A DNA stretch of 64,000 bases from a virus: the IMG/VR virus record IMGVR_UViG_3300045988_141753; one strand, given 5' to 3'. Both the position numbers and the translations under genes were made by a program. Positions within the stretch are counted from its first letter, which is position 1, and the number at the start of each line of letters is the position of its first letter. Of the stretch, positions 5,423 through 62,289 are shown piece after piece. The notes beneath the pieces were generated by a model. It was not told where the DNA came from. It saw nothing but the letters and a program-made list of their open reading frames with translations, and did not search any database.

Positions 5423-6179
5423 GGCACTTGTGGAGTTCTCTAAGAAGAGAAACACTGTCAAAGCAAAGAAAAAGGAACTAACTGGCATTGAAAAAACTGT
5501 AACTATTGAAGGTGCAGGACTTGAACTTAAAGATTATCAGACAGTTAATTTTAAGGGACAGGATTTGATACTTGATCTCATGTCCTGCGGCGCACACTTT
5601 ATTGTGACCGCAAGAGAAACAGACGAAAAGGTTTCCGTAAAGGGTGACGATGGTAAAATTACCAGCGTTGCAACAGGCAGAAAAATTCCTGACGGCTTTA
5701 AGCAGATGAACTATAATGTTAAAACTGTTGTAAGAATGTACATTAATGAGGATAATAATTTCTGTGCGTATATCAGCAAGGACAGGACAGGTGTACACGA
5801 TAAGGAAACAGTTGAAGATTTGTCACTTGTTGATTGGCAGGTCATTATTGATAGAACAAAGGACAAGAAAGAGTTTTCTGTTAAGAATGATCTCACAAAG
5901 GCTGTCGATATTGAGCAGGATATTTATACAAAGGAAGTTATGGGCAAGGTTGGAGAACCAGTTGATAGTATTGAAACAAATGAAAACTCTGCCGAAAATC
6001 AGACAACAGAACTTCTTGATAAGATTTCAGCCGTTATGAAAAGTCTTAATCCTGTCGGTAAGACAAAGGCAAAGGAGGCTCTTTCTGCCGAAAGTCTGCC
6101 TGTTAAGTCAACAGAAATGAAGAAGATTACAGATATTAAGACTCTTGAAAGGGTTCTTGAAGTTATTTCTAAGATTTAA
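5423..6179 (+). CDS. AAA_24/Sak4-like ATPase, exon 2
   Basis: The frame is open from 5421 with no credible RBS or ATG. It encodes ...AHFIVTARETDEK..., the sensor region typical of this family. Joined product: ...LTTKQKTV|ALVEFSKKRN... Confidence 0.7.
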
Positions 6180-52834: not shown

Positions 52835-55800
52835 TTAATAATTTTTACCGACTATTCTATCCAAATCAGCCTGTTGCAGATAAGCGTTCATCTGCTCTAA
52901 GAATGTTGTGCCGTCTGTTGTATTGACAGTATCAATCTGGAATACAATAGTCTTATTGTTTGTGTCACTTCTATTTTGAATATTGTTTGGCGAGGACATT
53001 TTTGTCCTTACCAAATCTGTTATACCATTGTAAATCTTATCTCCAATATAATTGACAAGATTATCTGTATTAGCCACAAGGTTGTATAGCTTTCTGCCTT
53101 GCTCTGAATTGAAGATAGTTTCAACTGCATTTGGCTTTCCGTGAAGTTGTGCAAGCCCTGTATAATCATCAATACCACCTGAACGATATGGCTTAATAAT
53201 GTTGAACTTACTCTTTAAAGCATTAAGAATAGCTGTTAATGCACCCTTGTTCTTACCAAGCATAGGATTAGCCAATAGTTCTGATGAAACCATTTTGCCG
53301 TACAGTTCAGATTTTAACTGTTCTGCTTGTGCTTCATCAAGCCCTGTTCCAACAGTTTCACCGTCATATTGAACAAGATACAAACCATTCGATTTAGCAC
53401 CCTCAACAGAAATATCAGAATAGTCAAGAGCTTCCCTAGCACGTTTTTTACAATCCTCTAAGAACTTAGTCCTACCTTCCATAGTCTGCATTTCTTTTTC
53501 AGAAACATCTGTCAACTGTTTTATGTAGTCTTTATTCTTATTCGTAATATCTGTAACATACTTTGATAAAGCTTCTTTTTCTTTCTTGTATGCCTCAATT
53601 TCTTTGCTTTTAGCCGTTATCTCTTTTTCAACGCTCTCAATTTCCTTTTCAACCTGATCTGAAAGTTGAGAACGATAAGATTGGTATTTGCTTGCAAAGT
53701 CATTAAGAATATTTGTGTCTTGCTGTGCTATTTTGTCCGTCCAATTAACACCTAAAATATCTTTGGCAAGCTGTTCATTTTCTGTGTTAGTAGAGCTGTT
53801 GATAAGGTCTTGCCACTGTTGTTTATACTTATCCCACAATGAAGTTTCCTTATCACGCTGCTTTTCAAGGTCAGATACACGTTTATCAGCACTAGCCTGT
53901 TCATATTCCTGCTGTGCCTTGTTTACTTCCTCGGTATTGGTTTCCAAATGCCAACCACTAGCTTCAGAATAAACATTTACCTTTTTCTTTTTAGCATTTT
54001 CAAGATTATTTAGCTTTTCCTGTAAGTCAATAGTATCTTGTTTTTCTTCATTAACAGCTTTAATGGCATCAATTTCAGCATTATATCTGTCCTCAATAGC
54101 TGATTTCTGCTCGTCAATATAAGACTCTACTGTGTTTGCAACAGTTTCGTACTGAGAAATAATATTGTCAAGTTGAGTTTTTTGTTCTGTAAGAATATTC
54201 TTTTGTTCTTCAAGAACATCTTTCTCGTCCTCAGCTTTATCTATAAGATCATCAAACGTTTCCTCATAAATTTTCTCAATATCGTCTACAGACAGTTTAA
54301 CGTCGGAAATAGAAGAAGCTACCTCTCCAAGTTTTTCAAGACTTGAAATAAGACCTTCTACATTAGCCTTATCATTGCCATTCGGCAAACTGTTTGATAG
54401 TTCTTTTAATCTGTTTATTAATTCTTTAGGGTTTTGTCTTATCAGTTTCTTAACTTCTTCTGTCAGCTTTTCCGTGTTGCCCGAGAATTTAGCCAAGTCA
54501 GGATATGATTTAAACAGTTCAACTAAGTCACTATCCGAAATACTTCCGTCTTGCAGACTTGTTAAAGTATCTTTAAGTGATTTTGCTTTATTCTGAACTT
54601 CGTCAATATCGTCCGTCCACTCAGAAATATCAAAAGTACCTGTTGTTAATTTTGCAGGCAAAGTTTCAAAGAAAGTATTAACATAGTCAATTAAATCCTC
54701 GTCACCATTAGCCAAGTCAATTAATTTGTCCTTGTATTGCTGAGTTAAATCATAAAGCCTATCAACATCATCAATGTTTTTGGTTTCTACAGCATGACTA
54801 TAACTTTCAGTAGCTTTCTGAGCTTCATCAAATGCTTTGCTAAATTCTTCACTTGTGTTATAGTTTTCAAGTGTTTTCTGAATTTCGTTGTATTTATCAA
54901 CGGCATTAGAAAGTTTATCATATTCCTCTGTTGTGGTAGCAATTTCTTTTTGCAAATCAGCCAACCACTTGTTACGATTATCGTCTTTTGAAATGTTTGC
55001 CCATTTCTCGGATAATTCATCATAAACCTTTTGCATAGTATCAATACGTTCTTGCATTGTACCTGCGAAAAGTAAATTACTATAAGCATTAGTGCTTATA
55101 CCAACATTATTATACTTTTTAAGAATTGGTTCAATGTCATTCTTGTAACTGTACCAATCACCATAACCACGAGAGCCGACCTTGTTGATATCAGCATTAG
55201 AATTATAGTCACTGAATAGACCGTCTGATACATAGGCTTGCCCTTTGCCACCGTAATCAGTAGTAAAAAGACCCTTGTTAAAAGAGCTTCCCTCTTTTAA
55301 TTTCTTTTGTGCTAAATCATAGGCTTCTTTAACACTCAGCTTTCTATCACTATCATCAGGATCAGTAATATCCGACTCTTGATAAAGTTCACTCTCAGCC
55401 TTTTCTTTTTTCCATTCTTTGATTTTCTTAATATTTTCAGACATTTTGCCATTAAGCAAGTCAAGGCTCTTAGCTTCATTACCGTACTTGTCAATTAAGT
55501 TGTCCTGAATAGTATTCAAATCGTCCTTAACAGTTGACAAGTCATCTGTTGTCGCAACCAAAGTTACATAACGATTTACTAATTCGTTTACTGACTTGTT
55601 TTCTTCATCTAATTTGTCAATAGAGTCAGAGAAACTACTTGTGAACTGAGCTAAACTTTCTTTTGCATTATCGGTACCATTGACAATATTATCAAAAAGT
55701 GCTATAATCTTATCAATAACCAAACCTGCAAGCAAGCCGACAGCCATATTACCAACAGTTGATAATATTTTCATGCCAGCGGCAGCAAGCTTAGAAGAAG

Positions 55801-56014
55801 TCGCAACACCCTTTAAAGAAGCGGAAAGTATTTCTTCTGATACCGCTGCACCATTAGCACTTCTAGCAACATTGAGAGTTGTTTCAGAGCAACCCTTTAA
55901 AGCTATTGACTCGGCTTCAGCTACCGATTTACCCTGTGCCAAAAGGTTATTAAACTGACGGACATTTGCTACTTCATTTGCAGGAATTAGAGTTATATCC
56001 GATTTATTATGAAG
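52835..56014 (-). CDS. Tape measure protein, exon 4 (5' boundary unresolved, frame open up to 56143)
   Basis: More than 1060 codons with a hydrophobic block (AAAGMKILSTVGNMAVGLLAGLVI) and long coiled coils. There is no ATG/GTG with an RBS anywhere in the open 5' part. Confidence 0.7.
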   Translation of the reverse strand, partial: LHNKSDITLIPANEVANVRQFNNLLAQGKSVAEAESIALKGCSETTLNVARSANGAAVSEEILSASLKGVATSSKLAAAGMKILSTVGNMAVGLLAGLVIDKIIALFDNIVNGTDNAKESLAQFTSSFSDSIDKLDEENKSVNELVNRYVTLVATTDDLSTVKDDLNTIQDNLIDKYGNEAKSLDLLNGKMSENIKKIKEWKKEKAESELYQESDITDPDDSDRKLSVKEAYDLAQKKLKEGSSFNKGLFTTDYGGKGQAYVSDGLFSDYNSNADINKVGSRGYGDWYSYKNDIEPILKKYNNVGISTNAYSNLLFAGTMQERIDTMQKVYDELSEKWANISKDDNRNKWLADLQKEIATTTEEYDKLSNAVDKYNEIQKTLENYNTSEEFSKAFDEAQKATESYSHAVETKNIDDVDRLYDLTQQYKDKLIDLANGDEDLIDYVNTFFETLPAKLTTGTFDISEWTDDIDEVQNKAKSLKDTLTSLQDGSISDSDLVELFKSYPDLAKFSGNTEKLTEEVKKLIRQNPKELINRLKELSNSLPNGNDKANVEGLISSLEKLGEVASSISDVKLSVDDIEKIYEETFDDLIDKAEDEKDVLEEQKNILTEQKTQLDNIISQYETVANTVESYIDEQKSAIEDRYNAEIDAIKAVNEEKQDTIDLQEKLNNLENAKKKKVNVYSEASGWHLETNTEEVNKAQQEYEQASADKRVSDLEKQRDKETSLWDKYKQQWQDLINSSTNTENEQLAKDILGVNWTDKIAQQDTNILNDFASKYQSYRSQLSDQVEKEIESVEKEITAKSKEIEAYKKEKEALSKYVTDITNKNKDYIKQLTDVSEKEMQTMEGRTKFLEDCKKRAREALDYSDISVEGAKSNGLYLVQYDGETVGTGLDEAQAEQLKSELYGKMVSSELLANPMLGKNKGALTAILNALKSKFNIIKPYRSGGIDDYTGLAQLHGKPNAVETIFNSEQGRKLYNLVANTDNLVNYIGDKIYNGITDLVRTKMSSPNNIQNRSDTNNKTIVFQIDTVNTTDGTTFLEQMNAYLQQADLDRIVGKNY

Positions 56015-56159
56015 CAAGTTCTTTAAATCTGAAAGTTGTGTTATAGTCTTGCCTAATATACTGATATTAGTCTTGCCACTACTCTCATTTTCAACTGTTT
56101 TAAAGACCTTAACAGTTATTCGTTTATAGTTTTGATATAAATTTTAAAGGAGAATAGTT

Positions 56160-56585
56160 ATGACAAACAACCAAGAGAAAACAGGCAATGTAATTAACGA
56201 ACATACCACATCTACTAATAATGAGACTACCGAGCAAGTTCATTATTCGATAGGCAGAATTGTCATATTTATAATAATTGTTATTTTGTTTATATTAATG
56301 ATTATTGACTTAACTTCTAAAGCCCTACACTACGAAAAAGACTACAGCCAAGAAGCTTACACAGCAGCTAAATTCTATGTAAATAAACAGTTAAAAGCCC
56401 CTGCCACGGCAGATTATCCAATGTATGATAAAAACTTTATTACGCATCATAATGATAGCTACACCGTATCATCTTATGTGGATGCTGAAAATAGTTTTGG
56501 TGTTAAGGGCAGATTGTACTATACTGTCACTATGGAACGTGACGGCAAGGATTGGACTAACGTAAATGTTAATTTGAGAGAATAG
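56160..56585 (+). CDS. Membrane-anchored small protein (moron-like; superinfection-related?)
   Basis: AAAGGAG RBS. TM IVIFIIIVILFILMII. The extracytoplasmic domain has LKAPATADYP...VDAENSFGVKGRLYY, a common small-exported-protein pattern. It has its own terminator. Confidence 0.65.
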   Translation: MTNNQEKTGNVINEHTTSTNNETTEQVHYSIGRIVIFIIIVILFILMIIDLTSKALHYEKDYSQEAYTAAKFYVNKQLKAPATADYPMYDKNFITHHNDSYTVSSYVDAENSFGVKGRLYYTVTMERDGKDWTNVNVNLRE

Positions 56586-56670
56586 ATAGTGAATACGAGT
56601 GTATGAGTGTATGAGTATACACAAGTGTACAAATGGGCAAAAGTAAACAATGTGTGTTCATGTATAACAA

Positions 56671-56700
56671 AAGCTCCGAGAATATCGGAGCTTTATTTGC
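56671..56700 (+). terminator. Rho-independent terminator of the plus-strand membrane-protein gene
   Basis: aagctccga / tcggagctt stem with loop gaata, followed by tatttgc. Confidence 0.6.
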
Positions 56701-56749
56701 ATTGTATTCTATTTATTTTTTTGACTTTAACGCTTTGTAGTTTATGCCA

Positions 56750-56787
56750 ATTAAAACATATAGCCTCGCTTTAGGCGAGACTATATG
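56750..56787 (-). terminator. Rho-independent terminator of the MazF-like cassette
   Basis: 13-bp stem catatagtctcgc / gcgaggctatatg (minus sense) with loop ctaaa, followed by tttt. Confidence 0.65.
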
Positions 56788-56880
56788 AAACTACATTTGA
56801 ACTAGACTATTTATTAGTCGCTTGTCTAGTAGCGACAAACATTTGAAGTGTTTGTGGAGAACTAAGGTCTTATTTTATGA

Positions 56881-57270
56881 CTATTCATTTGCTGCGTTCA
56901 GTAACTCGTTGTCACCCTTGCCGTTTTCCATTTTAACCTGATCTGACTCAAGCAAAAACTGAACATAATTTTCAAGAATAATATCAATATCATCTTTATG
57001 TAGTTCACCAATTTTTCTTCGGAACTTACTGTTATCCAACGATACGGTTTTGGAAATTCGTGCTACAGACTCATGCTTTAATCCTGCCTCTTGCCAATGA
57101 GTAATAGGTACATCATATTTATCGGCTTCTCTCACTTCATGACTTGTCACTTTAATTGACAGTACACACAAAGGTTGCACACTCAATATAATAACAGGTC
57201 TATCCTTTGAGATATTTTTATCTTCAAAGGGAAAATTAGCGTACCACAACTCCCATTGTTTCTTCGCCAT
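56881..57270 (-). CDS. PemK/MazF-family toxin-like protein
   Basis: WELWYANFPFEDKNISKDRPVIILS...IKVTSHE...GLKHESVARISKTVSLDNSKFRRKIGELHKDD follows the MazF/PemK pattern (GD.y..d..P..G.E....RP.vv.q...i..iTs...S.v....i.t.d..rl....g.l). Confidence 0.65.
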   Translation of the reverse strand: MAKKQWELWYANFPFEDKNISKDRPVIILSVQPLCVLSIKVTSHEVREADKYDVPITHWQEAGLKHESVARISKTVSLDNSKFRRKIGELHKDDIDIILENYVQFLLESDQVKMENGKGDNELLNAANE

Positions 57271-57275
57271 TTATG

Positions 57276-57458
57276 TCACTTCCTATCGTCATCGATTTTT
57301 GCATAATTATCGTAGATTTTATCATTCCACTCATCATCTTTGTTTATTGTCGGATTGTGCGGTACATTACTCAGTATAAAATCTAAATTGGCTGTAATAA
57401 ATTGATTAAATTCCTCAACTGACATCTTAGTATTCTGTACATTTATTGTTTTAGCCAT
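57276..57458 (-). CDS. small acidic protein, antitoxin candidate (by position)
   Basis: ATG 57458 follows AGAGGTGAGG. Its stop is 5 nt before the toxin ATG. No fold recognised. Confidence 0.45.
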   Translation of the reverse strand: MAKTINVQNTKMSVEEFNQFITANLDFILSNVPHNPTINKDDEWNDKIYDNYAKIDDDRK

Positions 57459-57533
57459 AAACCTCACCTCTAAATTTTAAAATAATTTTATACCTTTGTG
57501 TGTAGTTGTTAATTAAAATGAAATACTTATAGT

Positions 57534-57782
57534 TTAATCTTCAAGTGATTTCCTAATATCTTCGTCCCATGGCTGTCCGTTAAAAGTCGAATGTTTCATC
57601 ATCTCTCTTGCCTGTTTTTTTATTTTTGAAATAACTGCTGCGGAGGACTTGGAATTAATAAATTCGTCCGCTTTATCTTCTCTAACAACGAAGGCAAGAT
57701 TTACAGGTTTACTCATAACTGCCATATCTATCAACTCCTCCTTCTTTTTACGTACATTCTTTTTGTTATTAGTTTCTCCCAT
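57534..57782 (-). CDS. small basic protein, first gene of the cassette (possible RHH-type regulator)
   Basis: ATG 57782 follows GAGGTGA; an alternative is ATG 57725 after AAGGAGG. KPVNLAFVVREDKADEF looks like an RHH strand-helix. This reading is weak. Confidence 0.4.
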   Translation of the reverse strand: MGETNNKKNVRKKKEELIDMAVMSKPVNLAFVVREDKADEFINSKSSAAVISKIKKQAREMMKHSTFNGQPWDEDIRKSLED

Positions 57783-57824
57783 GCGGTATCACCTCTATTA
57801 TATTATAGGGGCAAGCACCTAAAA

Positions 57825-57881
57825 TATGCGTATAACTAATAAATTATGCGTAAGAATAATAATTTATGCGTCTAACGCATA
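57825..57881 (-). promoter_or_regulatory. Phased operator array (TATGCGT x3 at 20-bp spacing + palindrome)
   Basis: TATGCGT occurs at 57825, 57845 and 57865. The third copy forms the palindrome TATGCGT-cta-ACGCATA (57865-57881), right at the predicted start site. Confidence 0.55.
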
Positions 57882-57892
57882 TTTCTATTATT

Positions 57893-57921
57893 AGTATACC
57901 CATTTTGGGAACTAATGTCAA
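57893..57921 (-). promoter_or_regulatory. Consensus promoter of the MazF-like cassette
   Basis: On the minus strand: TTGACA (57921-57916), 17 nt, then TATACT (57898-57893). Confidence 0.65.
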
Positions 57922-58461
57922 GCCATATATTGGTTGCATTAACAAACATTGTGTGAATATAAATGTAAAATTTTTATTAACGAACAAATTTAGTGTTGAC
58001 ATACGCAAATGAATAGTGTATAATAAATCACTATGCAAAATGATTAATAACAGTTTTATCCCACCCTTACTGTTAAAGGGCAAAACTAAATAAATGAGGG
58101 ATAATTCATTTTGGAAACGCTATAGGTGTTACCTATAGTTGGAGTACACCTTTATCTTGCCACAAGATAGTTACCGTCTACTCTCTGAACCTAGTCCGTA
58201 TCTCCCGATAGGGGTTGGCTGCTGACCTGACATTTTTAACAACACTTAGCACCTATTGTAATAGTATAATAGGCTTTTATCTCAGCATATGTTATCTTTG
58301 CTATTGTTTCCGAGTTTCCTCACTCTTGTAATACCATTGCTACAAGTAGTTGCAAAGCTTTAGCCGTTCCCAGCAATTTGGCAACCTTATTTTAAAACGT
58401 GTGTGACCTATGCACATATAGTTTGTGGCTGTGCATAAGTTGGCATCTTTAATAATTGTTT

Positions 58462-58782
58462 ACCTACGTTTTTGAATGATAATCCTGCCATAACGGTAGG
58501 AATAAGTGTTTCTAAAACACCGAATTTACTAATTAGATTATCAAGAACATCAATAATTTGTGTTCCACTGGTGATACCGAATTTAACTAAATCACCATTA
58601 ATCAGAGTAGCTGACAAATTTTCAATACTTGTCTGAAAACCTTGCACTCTTCCTTGAATAGAGTCAAGGTATTTTTCATACTCTGACATAGCAGACCCAG
58701 CAGAGCCTATTGAGTCATTAACAATTTTATCCGCTTGACTCATATTCGTAAGCAATGCAGTAATTGTATTGCCTCTTTGCTT
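58462..58782 (-). CDS. Tape measure protein, exon 3
   Basis: Starts KQRGNTITALLTNMSQ... with no ATG or RBS and continues the TMP core. The 3' end is placed after ...AGLSFKNVG by analogy. The frame stops 17 codons later. Confidence 0.65.
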
Positions 58783-59252
58783 CAATTATATTAAAGTAAG
58801 TCGCAAATTTACTTATATGTTATATAACATATCCTATGCTTTCACATAGAGCTTAGACTATTTCTTAATCACGTCATTTATGACAGCAATTATACCTTTT
58901 CCGTTTAAGGGTTATTCTCCCACTCCATTTGCGATTGAGCCGTACTTCTTTTGTTGCAACTATTCAGGATTTCCACCTTTATTTTATTGTTACAACCCCA
59001 TATGGGGAATAGTCGTTGAACTTTTACCCTCGACTTAAACTGTCCTATGATCTAGGATAACGTTAGGGTACTTAGCTGCATGAACAGAGATTGTTACTGT
59101 ACTTAGGCTTTTGACCTTATACAATCCTTACGTTATTTCTGCTTTCGCACCGTCATAATGTAATTTCTTCATTATTGTGGTGTAAGGCTTTACTCATTAC
59201 CTGCAATTAAATATATTCTTTATGCACATTTCTGTACATTCAGGTAAACTCT
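58783..59252 (-). mobile_element. Group I intron B in the TMP gene (ORF-less)
   Basis: The exon ends GCAGGT, and ACCTG 8 nt into the intron can form P1. AACGACTAT (59017-59009) pairs with ATAGTCT (58861-58855). The intron ends ...ATATAATTG. Phase 0 on both sides. Confidence 0.8.
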
Positions 59253-59522
59253 ACCTGCAATTTTCTCTATGACAGCGGCTTTTGATGTATCAGTAAGGTC
59301 GTTCCAAACATTGGCGATACCTTTCATAATTTCATAGGTACTCTTAAAGTTCTGAGAGTCCTTCATTATGTCAAAGCCACCTGTGCCATTTACATTAGTA
59401 AGAGCTTTAATATCTTCCCTCAGTTTTGAGGTTGATACTGCCATGCCCTCTGTTGACTCGCCTGCATCTTCTAGTTCTGTTTTCGCTCCACGAAGTCGCA
59501 TTGACAGAACTTTCAAACTGTT
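59253..59522 (-). CDS. Tape measure protein, exon 2
   Basis: NSLKVLSMRLRGAKTELEDAG...AAVIEKIAG is the conserved TP901-type TMP core segment. There is no ATG or RBS at the 5' end. Confidence 0.75.
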
Positions 59523-59823
59523 CAATCTGTTACTTTCCCAATTATATTGGTACTGACTACATTAAATATGTAGCGGTTAGTCATTTCTGGCTAACTCTCG
59601 TATTTCTTTTTTTATAGGATTATAATACGATGCTCGGACTATATATTACGCCCTGTAATAAGGACGGATAACTTCAATACATATGTTGCCATATATATCC
59701 TGTAGTCTCTACGGTTACTCAAAAAAAATTGAGTCTTACCTCGGTCTTAACTATCCTTTAGCCTTTGACCGATATAGTTATCTGCATACTATATATTATT
59801 ATATAGTCGGGCAATTTGCGTTT
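59523..59823 (-). mobile_element. Group I intron A in the TMP gene (ORF-less)
   Basis: The exon ends GCGGGT, and GCCCG 12 nt into the intron can form P1 (CGGGU/GCCCG). GACTA...TAGTC pair present. The intron ends ...ACAGATTG. Phase 0 on both sides. Confidence 0.65.
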
Positions 59824-62289
59824 ACCCGCTTCGGCTGCGTCTCCAGTTATTTCTGTAATGGCTGTACCCATTGCTATTGCTTGGTCTAGTGTATTTCCTG
59901 CTACGCTCAGTGAAGATACTGACCTTGACAACATATCACCAATATCACTCGCTGAAACAGCATACTTGTTTGATATTGCGTTAAACTTATCAACAATATT
60001 AATAGACTCGTCAACTGTCATGTTATAGCTTTTCATAACTGTTGTTAGGTCTTGTACTGCTGTTGCATTATCTACTTCACCAACAACTGAATAAATACCT
60101 GAGTTTGTGGCAAGTGTTTCAGCTTCATCTAAACTATAACCACGTTTACCCCATTCTGCGGTTTGAGAAATAAGATCAGACAAATCAATCTTTAAATCTT
60201 TAGCCTTTTGACCTATATTATCAAAGAACTCGGCATATTGCTGATTTGTGTTATCAGTAACCTTACGCAAGTCTGTCATAGCTGTATCAATATCTACAAC
60301 ATTATTATAGAACTTAACAGCTTCTCTGGATATACCTGAAATCACAGTAGTTAAACTCATCCAGCTTGTGAATTTTAAAGCGTCCTCTTTAATCTTGTCA
60401 AAAAAGCTTAAACCATTCACACCTGCTGCCTGTGCCTCAGAACTCATTGTCCTAAAACTACGATTGATTTTATCAACATTGACTTTCAAATCGCTCGCAG
60501 TTAGATCGCTAGCATTAAGCAACTTTTTGAGTGAAGCTATCATATTATCAGTTTCAACCTGATATGTACCGCCATTAAAAGTATTCTTGCTCATGGCTTT
60601 AGTATTAGCCTGTTGCCATGTCTGAATTGTGTATATTAACTTTTTAATGTTCTGCCTTGTAGCTTCTATACTCTGTTGTGATTTGTTGCTAGAAAAACTA
60701 GCCTTATAGGCTACATCTGCCCTCTTTAACTCATTTGTTAGTTCATTGAGTTTAATACGATATTCGTCTAATGCTTTAGGATCGCCACCCACATTAGATA
60801 AACTTGTTTTTAACTCATTAAACTTTTCTTGAAACTCTCCGCTAAAAATAGGCGACTCTTTCCACTTTGTTTCTAAGGTGGTGAGATTTTGCGTAAGTCT
60901 AGCTACATTATTTTCTGTTTTAGTAGATGTAGCTGACGATTTATCAGCAGACTTAGCTTTTACAATAGCCTGTTCATATTCACCTGTTTTCTTGAGCAGA
61001 CGTATTTGTTCTTCATATTCCGAAGAAATTAATTTATGTTTTTCTAAATAGCTTTCGGCTGTAGATATTCTACCCTTTGCATTTTTTATTTGCCTATTTA
61101 TTTCAACAGTTTCCTCTTTGCCTGCTGAAATACGTTGCTTTTCTAACTTGTTAATTAGTGAAATATTTTCAATAATTTTATTGTATCTACTAGCTTGCTG
61201 TTGTGCCTCGGAATTATCAGATTTTTCAAGCAACTGTAAATTCTTTATTTCGGTTTCTGCTTTTTTAACCGAAACAACTAACTCACGATATTCCTCAGAC
61301 CATTTTTCATTTCGCCCAAATTGATTTTCGGTTTCATTGACCTTGTTTAATTGGGAATTTAAGTTACCAATTAATTCGGAAACCTCTGACGGTTGTTGTT
61401 TAAGTTTTGAAAAACTATTGGATATTTCCTGTATTGTTGCAGGCATTTTAGCCAAAGTGTTTTCGGCATTTGTAGTTTCATTAAAAGAACTTGTAAGAGA
61501 TTTTAAATTTTGTCTGATATTGCTTGCAGTAGTTTTTAATGAATTGAATAGCTTATCAACCTCTGCAATAGAGCCACCCTTGCCAAGATTGTCAATAGCA
61601 ACATTAACGGCATTAATTTCATTTCCTATACCCGATTCAATACCTTTATTCGCTGACTTAAATGCCGAAAGTTTAGCAGTATAATCCGACTTAGCCTTAT
61701 CAATATCCGCAATCAGCTTTAATATACCCTTTTCAGAACTGCTACCCGATAGATAGTCAAATGACCCATTTGTTTCGTTCAGAGCATATTTCAGTTTTTC
61801 GACTTGACCTGTCAAGCTTGTAACTTCTGCCGTAATTTGAGTAACTTCACCCGAACTATCTTTAGTCCATGAAAATGTCGGATTACCAAACTGACTCAAA
61901 ACTTTTCTTGCATTTTCAATAGTTTTAACAATATCTATCTGTCCGTCTTTATTAAAACCTGCCTTGAAAGTTTCTGCAAGAGTCGTGTCAATATTCTGTA
62001 TCTCATGCTTTATATTTTTAACAGAGCTAGTTACCTGTTTTTCAGCAGCCTTTATACTACTCTGAATAGAAGTTACATTTAAACCACCAATATCTATTTT
62101 TAGATTTTTGCTGATTGTAGCAAGTTGAGATTGAATTTTCTTTTGTGTTTTATTCAAATCCAACTCACCAATGATTTTAGCATGAGCTTTATTGTCATTT
62201 GCCAGTACGTTATTTAATTTAGGTATATCGTCCTTAACTTTACTTGTGTCAAGTTCCACAGGAACTCGTATTTTTAAATCATCTGCCAT
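59824..62289 (-). CDS. Tape measure protein, exon 1
   Basis: ATG 62289 follows GAGGTGAAG. Long coiled-coil N-part. It ends ...SVAGNTLDQAIAMGTAITEITGDAAEAG, the start of the TMP core. The unspliced frame stops 21 codons later. Confidence 0.8.

Follow-up and report, generated by a model that had tools for sequence, protein, structure and literature searches.

The stretch of viral DNA analysed here, referred to as the window, comprises 64,000 nucleotides (nt) of IMG/VR record IMGVR_UViG_3300045988_141753 and belongs to an SPbeta-like prophage of a Ruminococcus-type host, with a genome context that includes the YonB, YomX, YomW and YomN families. Its tape-measure gene is encoded on the minus strand and is split by a 2.4-kb block harboring a toxin cassette and a membrane-protein gene. 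Based on the listing of open reading frames (ORFs) and their translations, three exons precede the break, each ending on a GGT codon: exon 1 ends in ...AAEAG, exon 2 spans NSLKVL...IEKIAG and exon 3 spans KQRGNT...AGLSFKNVG. The joins between these exons are borne out by contiguous proteins of 1036 amino acids (aa) from relatives. As recorded in the initial annotation, the frame breaks after ...AGLSFKNVG on a GGT codon (58464-58462), as at the exons bordering introns A and B, and is followed by 17 junk codons up to an in-frame TAG; comparison with relatives showed the KQLLKMPTYAQPQTICA tail of the annotated 1036-aa proteins to be the product of this TAG. A second open frame, exceeding 1060 codons, extends from 56143 to 52835. 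It was correctly described as lacking an ATG or GTG start with a ribosome-binding site near its beginning, and its sole TTG (56017) is likewise devoid of such a site; the resumption of the tape-measure sequence, which had been placed at or after 56143, is here set at 56107. We read the block as a single group I intron that splits the tape-measure gene and carries a MazF-type cassette together with the membrane-protein gene, and judge this reading to have a probability of roughly 0.8. The features of the locus are collected in Table 1.

Table 1. Features of the tape-measure gene and of the block that splits it, in window coordinates.
Feature	Coordinates	Strand	Remarks
Intron A	59526-59826	-	No Rfam match even at E<=10
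Intron B	58786-59256	-	Weak Rfam match, 23.5 bits
Tape-measure exon 3	58462..58785	-	Last 6 nt GTAGGT (58467-58462) form the exon strand of P1
Predicted group I ribozyme core	58120..58461	-	Intron nt 1-342: P1, P2, P3, P4, P5 with long extension, P6, P7, P8, P9
Internal guide sequence AAAGAU|GCCAAC	58439..58450	-	Pairs with both exon ends
In-frame TAG inside P2	58408..58410	-	Stops ribosomes reading past the 5' splice site
Structured extension after P9	58064..58119	-	Hairpin AAAUGA/UCAUUU; motif UAGUUUUG (58088-58081); hairpin CCCUU...AAGGG (58080-58064)
Antisense promoter TTGACA-17-TATAAT	57996..58024	+	12/12 consensus matches; points into the ribozyme; ~75 nt from the cassette promoter, back to back
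Cassette promoter TTGACA-17-TATACT	57893..57921	-	11/12 consensus matches
Operator-like palindromes and repeats in the cassette leader	57822..57884	-	ATGCGT-N3-ACGCAT; TACGCAT repeats ~20 nt apart
Cassette gene 1, 82 aa	57534..57782	-	Own ribosome-binding site
Cassette gene 2, 60 aa from ATG 57458 or 63 aa from GTG 57467	57276..57467	-	Ribosome-binding site
Cassette gene 3, 129 aa, PemK/MazF-family toxin	56881..57270	-	Ribosome-binding site
Intrinsic-terminator-like hairpin closing the cassette	56757..56787	-	13-bp stem; from terminator scan
Terminator-like hairpin of the membrane-protein gene	56670..56694	+	Also a hairpin followed by a U-run on the tape-measure strand
Antisense gene, 141-aa single-pass membrane protein	56160..56585	+	Own ribosome-binding site; phrog_13160 (unknown function), E=1.5e-17
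3' motif CAAAACUA, CAAAAC(UA)	56127..56134	-	18-21 nt before the terminal G; complementary to UAGUUUUG
Intron terminal G (omega-G), predicted 3' splice site	56108..56108	-	Invariant before GTC/GTA TTT AAA in all lineages
Tape-measure exon 4	52835..56107	-	VFKTVENESS..., 1090 codons and stop; starts GTC TTT AAA

The region 55500-60200 was scanned permissively against Rfam, as proposed in the initial annotation. The group I intron model RF00028 was matched over its full length (model positions 1-253) by 58120-58443 on the minus strand, with a score of 38.5 bits (E=2e-7) compared to a gathering score of 50 bits, much of the loss being due to a large insertion in P5. Diverged copies were sought using the hypothetical spliced protein as a query against a 50%-identity protein library. 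Many tape-measure ORFs were found to end just past ...KNVG with tails resembling translated intron 5' ends, and the contigs behind six such proteins (L063-L068) each contained a homologous but diverged intron at the identical ...KNVG| codon. Judging from these sequences, introns seem to have inserted widely at the KNVG site, mostly escaping annotation. As Rfam gave no match in the homologous introns of L063, L064 and L065, a purpose-made alignment was used instead, comprising nine homologous ribozymes from the identical tape-measure site. RNAalifold recovered P1, P2, P3, P4, P5 with its extension, P6, P8 and P9 from this alignment, with compensatory changes in 44 of 86 pairs. For the pair counts, the P7 pseudoknot was added by hand, and the controls consisted of partners slid by 1-3 columns as well as 500 shuffles. 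With P7 included, 96.1% of cells form standard pairs (32-44% in the slid controls) and 46 of the 91 pairs have changed on both sides (6-9 in the slid controls), values that were reached by none of the 500 shuffles. P7 itself is paired in 100% of cells, in three different sequence versions with two covarying pairs. The covariation thus shows a ribozyme kept under selection for structure, and the first 342 nt of the block are predicted to form a complete, conserved group I ribozyme. The earlier proposal of a group I 5' half in the first ~380 nt is thereby replaced; the intron is neither degenerate nor twinned, its core being whole and at the 5' end, and a 3' ribozyme half, which had been sought next to exon 4, is not to be expected there. 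No visible role was found for the TAGTCT motifs pointed out in that search.

Both exon ends can be aligned by the internal guide sequence. P1 is formed by GCCAAC (58444-58439) and the GUAGGU that ends exon 3, and contains a U58462.G58444 wobble that is invariant in 9/9 sequences and adjoins a pair covarying between A-U and G-C. Directly beside P1, AAAGAU (58450-58445) pairs with the first six nucleotides of exon 4, GUCUUU, to give a 6-bp P10. Together, P1 and P10 are paired in 66/66 cells over six lineages, compared to 33-50% in the slid controls, and P10 was found to covary in L068, where AAAGAU:GUCUUU has become AAAUAC:GUAUUU (G-C to U-A) with the protein still reading Val-Phe-Lys. The 3' end of the element was compared in 52 close relatives with enough flanking sequence, among which it occurs in at least three diverged versions, all converging on ...TTA(A)G|GTC TTT AAA. 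At the protein level, conservation begins exactly at Val-Phe-Lys, all indels being multiples of three, and the exon 4 frame is open for 1078-1091 codons in all relatives. A survey of 53 loci revealed neither an exon 4 start codon with a ribosome-binding site nor a conserved start; the first in-frame start codon is at codon 19, 30, 39, 45, 49 or 105, depending on the relative, and a stop codon is located in frame directly before the exon 4 GTC in 35 of the 53. The junction of the distant homologue L065 reads ...AAAAUG|GUCUUUAAAACA, and its C-terminal part shares 41% identity.

Comparison with uninterrupted homologues gave an independent view of the junction. Uninterrupted tape-measure proteins of 2000-3000 aa matched the composite query over the join in one HMMER stretch, and no gap was found at the junction in P0137 (SFKNIGIFSTFD / ...GAMSFKNIGIFSTFD, compared to the predicted SFKNVG|VFKTVE), P0124 (STKNIGIFSLDD / ...GALSTKNIGIFSLDD, compared to the predicted ...AGLSFKNVG|VFKTVE) or P0150 (...GKTAGIFSLSD). 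The KNVG|VFKT of the predicted product corresponds to KNIGIFS (...SFKNIGIFS...) in the uninterrupted proteins, and the tape-measure proteins of phages AM5, c-st and PMBT24 are continuous through the join position. The alignment of joined exons 1-4 that had been recommended with the initial annotation thus fixed the junction at KNVG|VFKT. The start of coding conservation, the lack of a start codon, the guide pairing, the covariation of P10 and the homology over the join all place the 3' splice site after G56108. The predicted intron is accordingly 58461..56108 on the minus strand, with a length of 2354 nt, and exons 1-4 are predicted to give a mature tape-measure protein of 2109 aa. Ligation at these sites, with the predicted junction ...AAAAACGTAGGT|GTCTTTAAAACA... 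(GGT|GTC), would restore the tape-measure frame. The predicted spliced 30-mer, TTCAAAAACGTAGGTGTCTTTAAAACAGTT, was not found in DNA assemblies, and a degenerate FKNVGVFKT junction pattern gave no matches in viral contigs and a single match each in the metagenome and genome collections, to an unrelated protein, the record from the genome collection being labeled as an uncultured gammaproteobacterium.

Past P9, the ribozyme continues into two or three small hairpins and a (UA)GUUUUG motif. Close relatives share this extension as a conserved region, and distant homologues again have the GUUUUG motif and the next hairpin, the hairpin stem differing in L068 (CACUG/CAGUG). The GUUUUG motif and the complementary CAAAAC motif near the 3' end are kept in all three 3' variants, as well as in L065 and L068 despite unrelated cargo and neighboring genes, and an A-to-G change in the closing motif of L037 and L053 still permits G.U pairing. 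The two motifs are a candidate for a long-range helix closing the cargo loop, and are retained as such because of their conservation and not because of the pairing energy.

All cargo of the window's intron (~1.9 kb) is located downstream of P9. Its outline had been recognized in the initial annotation, and each element was recovered here: the cassette promoter, the phased operator array (ATGCGT/ACGCAT palindromes and 20-nt repeats), three co-directional genes, the 13-bp-stem terminator, and a convergent membrane-protein gene with its own ribosome-binding site and terminator. The last cassette gene had been called PemK/MazF-like, in agreement with matches of its 129-aa product to PF02452 (PemK_toxin; 47.6 bits, cut-off 23.1, E=2.2e-12) and phrog_1936 (MazF-like growth inhibitor; E=3.9e-20); no PDB sequence was matched at E<=0.01. 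The family searches suggested for all three cassette proteins were productive for this one alone, as the 82-aa protein gave no family match and the 60-aa protein no antitoxin or other family match in Pfam, PHROG or PADLOC. The 82-aa protein is probably a regulator, since it is also present in a second cargo module (see below), and the 60-aa protein is a presumed antitoxin, as its gene ends 5 nt before the toxin gene. Roles of the cargo beyond the toxin family match are thus putative, and PADLOC gave no match for any cargo protein. No homing-endonuclease domain (LAGLIDADG, GIY-YIG, HNH or His-Cys box) was found in the window's four cargo ORFs or in representative cargo proteins of the relatives, and no transposase in the window's intron. 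The cassette had been proposed to have replaced a homing endonuclease; this swap is unproven, and none of the relatives examined has a recognizable endonuclease domain.

Consensus signals show the cargo to be organized as predicted autonomous transcription units. A consensus scan detected no promoter for the antisense membrane-protein gene, which would need to lie within or overlapping the start of exon 4. The antisense promoter facing the ribozyme could produce an antisense RNA against the ribozyme and the 5' splice site in the lysogen; its perfect form was found in 11 of the 52 close relatives, and in L007, which was inspected, it is near-perfect with a TAAAAT -10 box. No obvious ORF was seen downstream of this promoter.

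The intron is retained in 52/52 close relatives, with a length ranging from 2285 to 5503 nt. No intron-less allele was found among them, and there is thus no sign of ongoing homing. The cargo, on the other hand, has been exchanged, as judged by ORF clustering, which revealed at least three modules among the close relatives. Module A, present in the window, encodes proteins of 82, 60 and 129 aa including the MazF toxin; module B encodes proteins of 73, 155 and 132 aa with no family matches (including Pfam); and module C encodes proteins of 82, 180 and 68 aa, of which that of 180 aa is an acetyltransferase (phrog_1758). Divergence between modules A and B sets in directly past the -10 box of the cassette promoter. 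As the promoter itself was found in 52/52 close relatives and also in L065, it is part of the intron frame and not of the cargo. The antisense membrane-protein gene is likewise found in 52/52 close relatives, in variants of 127, 128, 133, 138 and 141 aa, each of which is accompanied by a corresponding version of the initial 20-45 exon 4 codons (window 56000-56107), and the recombination unit thus spans the 3' splice site. In L065 (5166-6952 on the minus strand of this locus), the cargo comprises a gene for a 227-aa protein and an antisense SLATT_1/DUF4231 gene and is unrelated to any module of the close relatives; that of L068 consists of two small antisense ORFs. A megablast search of the 9.5-kb region against phage genomes gave no match.

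An optional cargo gene encoding a 160-aa protein (phrog_33519, unknown function) was also observed, at intron nt 2060-2542 of L002 and in L025, L023, L030 and others. By eye, this protein resembles the N-terminal pattern of ToxN/AbiQ type III toxins (FY..D..Y...F.D..L......RP....I....IYW.IP.SS), a likeness that is unconfirmed, with no Pfam or PADLOC match.

From these features, a mechanism can be proposed in which the lytic and lysogenic states use the locus differently. During the lytic cycle, late transcription would cross the intron, which would then fold and splice so that the cargo leaves the tape-measure mRNA. The CAAAAC motif in the last ~30 nt would pair with GUUUUG just past the core and thereby return the distant 3' splice site to the ribozyme, where the guide AAAGAU|GCCAAC would align the last bases of exon 3 through P1 and the first of exon 4 through P10; with the intron cut out after G56108, ...KNVG would be ligated to VFKT.... 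In the lysogen, expression by the host RNA polymerase would be restricted to the cargo, namely the cassette and the membrane protein, with the terminators shielding the late tail genes. Owing to the intron, the accessory genes could sit inside an essential gene at no cost, and cargo could be exchanged among relatives by recombination between the conserved intron arms. A broader view is that this intron lineage serves as a dedicated safe harbor for exchangeable accessory genes, expressed in the lysogen and removed as an island by splicing in the lytic cycle. The fixed frame would consist of the ribozyme, the intron-borne host-type promoter and the 3' closing motif, into which toxin-antitoxin, acetyltransferase, SLATT-type and other cassettes recombine. 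This proposal is tentative, and we consider it to fall slightly short of even odds.

Several observations weigh against a single functional intron. Splicing of 58461..56108 is something we infer from sequence. The Rfam score falls below the gathering threshold in the window, and the model is silent on the three diverged homologues mentioned above. P1 contains an A.A mismatch. No true covariation was detected in the GUUUUG/CAAAAC helix, and its energy in an RNAduplex test was only marginally better than that of shuffles (p 0.01-0.18). Late transcription would also have to read through two terminator-like hairpins that the intron contains on the tape-measure strand. The late genes of SPbeta constitute a single operon, and YonO, the polymerase that transcribes it, is devoid of the flap domain on which hairpin-dependent termination relies (PMC5467207). 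The window yielded no YonO-like polymerase; ten of its ORFs were scanned with no polymerase match, and among window ORFs of at least 250 aa only those of the tail region are as long as SPbeta YonO (~100 kDa). The read-through step thus rests on analogy with SPbeta, by which read-through in late transcription is plausible. Furthermore, L065 and L068 have an ATG directly before exon 4, with no ribosome-binding site, and exon 4 may be independently translated in these two loci.

Insertions within the ribozyme of some relatives also count on this side. A TnpB gene is found in the 5' region of the intron in 13 of the 52 close relatives. In L001, it belongs to a 2545-bp element resembling the insertion sequence (IS) IS607 (MerR/resolvase, serine-recombinase TnpA together with TnpB), which occupies intron nt 92-2636 and interrupts the ribozyme between the 5' strand of P4 and J4/5 (TTGCTGG|G...GG|AACGGC). 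TnpA and TnpB with an equal 2545-nt offset are present in L004, L006, L019, L026, L032, L033, L041, L049 and L059, and TnpB only in L025, L029 and L031. The loci with both genes have differing cargo modules and 3' variants, and the distribution of the element is consistent with TnpB-assisted retention or recombination. If these IS-bearing prophages are viable, either the ribozyme is very tolerant or splicing is dispensable.

Dispensable splicing would fit an arrangement in which two separately translated proteins supply the tape-measure function, the ribozyme being a relic or an RNA trimmer and the cargo a moron island between genes, as had been offered in the initial annotation alongside a giant group I intron with non-endonuclease cargo. 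The N-terminal part would then end at the TAG inside the intron (1036 aa) and the C-terminal part would originate from an internal or non-canonical start. Gene callers do annotate two proteins in hundreds of contigs, and this arrangement is also favored by the two terminators between the halves, the ATG directly before VFK in L065 and L068, and the intact state of both reading frames in the relatives with an IS inside the ribozyme. It is nevertheless unlikely: no start or ribosome-binding site is conserved, the first possible start varies from codon 19 to codon 105, and coding conservation begins at VFK, directly past a stop codon in most relatives. The maintenance of the ribozyme, P1, P10 and the terminal G with compensatory changes would be unexpected for a relic, and the uninterrupted homologues are collinear and gap-free over the join. 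As the boundaries of the element coincide with the predicted splice sites, and exon 4 has no conserved start and an in-frame stop before it in most relatives, the moron island is set aside in favor of the giant intron, which is supported by the covarying complete ribozyme, P1 and P10, the terminal G and the codon-exact match of the exons.

The terminators between the two halves could also be accommodated by trans-splicing, whereby the late transcript is cut short and an RNA with exon 3 and the ribozyme associates with one comprising the intron 3' end and exon 4, through GUUUUG/CAAAAC and neighboring pairings, before ligation. Group I introns can reassemble from pieces, and the complementarity between the post-P9 region and the last 30-45 nt of the intron is conserved. 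However, the interval from the terminators to exon 4 yielded no sense-strand promoter, and the collinear arrangement on one strand makes read-through the simpler route; we regard trans-splicing as very improbable. Hardly credible is a short intron of 342 nt ending at G58120, where the Rfam alignment terminates on ...CCUAUAG, with the N-terminal protein extended by 92 codons to 57844 and the remainder being intergenic cargo. The 92-codon frame is indeed in phase with exon 3, but the length of the A-run following 58120 varies among relatives and shifts the frame (CCAAAATG, CAAAAAATG, CCAAAAATG and others), so that the region just after P9 is noncoding. In addition, the CGUUUC just after 58120 is unable to pair with AAAGAU as P10, no homologue was found for the 92 codons, which include the conserved promoter, and an equivalent open frame is missing from the distant homologues. 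G58120 was therefore rejected as a 3' splice site.

The single intron favored here can be compared to several known systems. Closest in layout, along with the T4 sunY intron, are the IStrons, which combine a group I intron with an IS200/605 or IS607 element and likewise have a 5' ribozyme with one to several kb of coding cargo downstream (Tourasse et al. 2014, PMC4227781; bioRxiv 10.1101/2023.11.20.567912). The IStron survey figures an inverted-repeat stem, which the candidate GUUUUG/CAAAAC pairing resembles, and describes self-splicing as making the insertion harmless to the host genome (PMC4227781). Unlike in IStrons, the cargo in the window is not a transposon and includes no tnpA or tnpB, consisting instead of the MazF cassette and the antisense membrane-protein gene; the element occupies one fixed site in a phage gene and is not known to be multi-copy or mobile; and the IS607-like element of the relatives interrupts the ribozyme and does not form the cargo.

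Phage group I introns with homing-endonuclease ORFs include those of T4 sunY (nrdD), T4 td, SPbeta bnrdE/bnrdF and Twort orf142. The T4 sunY intron has a remote 3' splice site and an ORF region after P9, with the splice site selected by P10 and terminal pairings. The window's intron shares with this type its position in an essential gene, the 5' core, ORFs past P9 and an early in-frame stop after the 5' splice site, and with Twort the occurrence of several introns in one gene. In contrast, no homing-endonuclease domain was detected, and several genes are encoded on both strands with host-type promoters and terminators. Like morons and prophage toxin-antitoxin or defense islands, the cargo is an autonomous promoter-genes-terminator unit in a late structural operon, with contents that vary between near-identical prophages; morons lie between genes, whereas this unit is inside a coding sequence and would be harmless only through RNA splicing. 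The giant mitochondrial group I intron ND5-717 of hexacorals encloses ordinary genes, and is thus similar in that functional non-endonuclease genes occupy the interior of a group I intron, but it is organellar and encloses core mitochondrial genes instead of exchangeable cassettes with their own promoters. Earlier genome reports apparently already include group I introns in tape-measure genes of phages. Full-text literature searches yielded no description of a group I intron with toxin-antitoxin, moron or defense cargo. The layout of a 5' ribozyme with a distant 3' splice site is hence already known, and the novelty lies in the non-endonuclease, non-transposon, exchangeable and promoter-driven cargo.

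Hundreds of public contigs annotate a truncated 1036-aa tape-measure protein and a ~1060-aa orphan with an arbitrary start, and the Rfam threshold misses the intron. Many other Firmicutes phage tape-measure ORFs end just past KNVG. The persistence of bacterial group I introns is generally ascribed to homing endonucleases or, in IStrons, to transposases; the intron described here is instead fixed and bears an antisense gene as well as modular cassettes, toxin-antitoxin and other accessory ones, equipped with a promoter and terminators of their own. Its ribozyme would have to reach a 3' splice site 2-5 kb away over promoters, terminators and the antisense gene, and therefore lends itself to studying how RNA folds over long distances and how polymerase type and splicing affect each other. 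If the safe-harbor proposal is true, the intron would persist through the benefit of its cargo to the lysogen and not through a homing endonuclease or transposase, and the interiors of introns in phage structural genes would represent an unrecognized class of hotspots for defense and accessory genes. Such interiors are places in which to seek these genes, and possibly payload sites for engineered phages.

Introns A and B of the same gene are absent from the great majority of relatives, in which the 1036-aa ORF is contiguous over both sites, and are thus optional, unlike the third intron. Other tape-measure representatives were seen to end around query position 335-338, in the vicinity of the intron B site. 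The tape-measure gene of Clostridium phage c-st (L013, NC_007581) is annotated as two coding sequences, CST131 and CST130, located 370 nt apart (5619-5989); the start of CST130 is homologous to the intron A site of the window (EAG|NSLK...), and an IS605-type transposase pair is found just upstream. The gap between the two is probably another unannotated group I intron. Tape-measure proteins of Firmicutes phages that end a few codons past ...(F)KNVG include P0204, P0249, P0263, P0182, P0136, P0242, P0267 and others, with tails such as RVKMFTLT and RDKRFSLLNMP. Exon 4 also contains a 10-nt direct repeat (GGCAAGACTA, minus strand) in two copies 24 nt apart (window 56042-56077); a complementarity of 14/15 between one copy (56042-56056) and the 5' arm of the cassette terminator (56771-56785) is missing in other exon 4 variants and was taken as probably due to chance.

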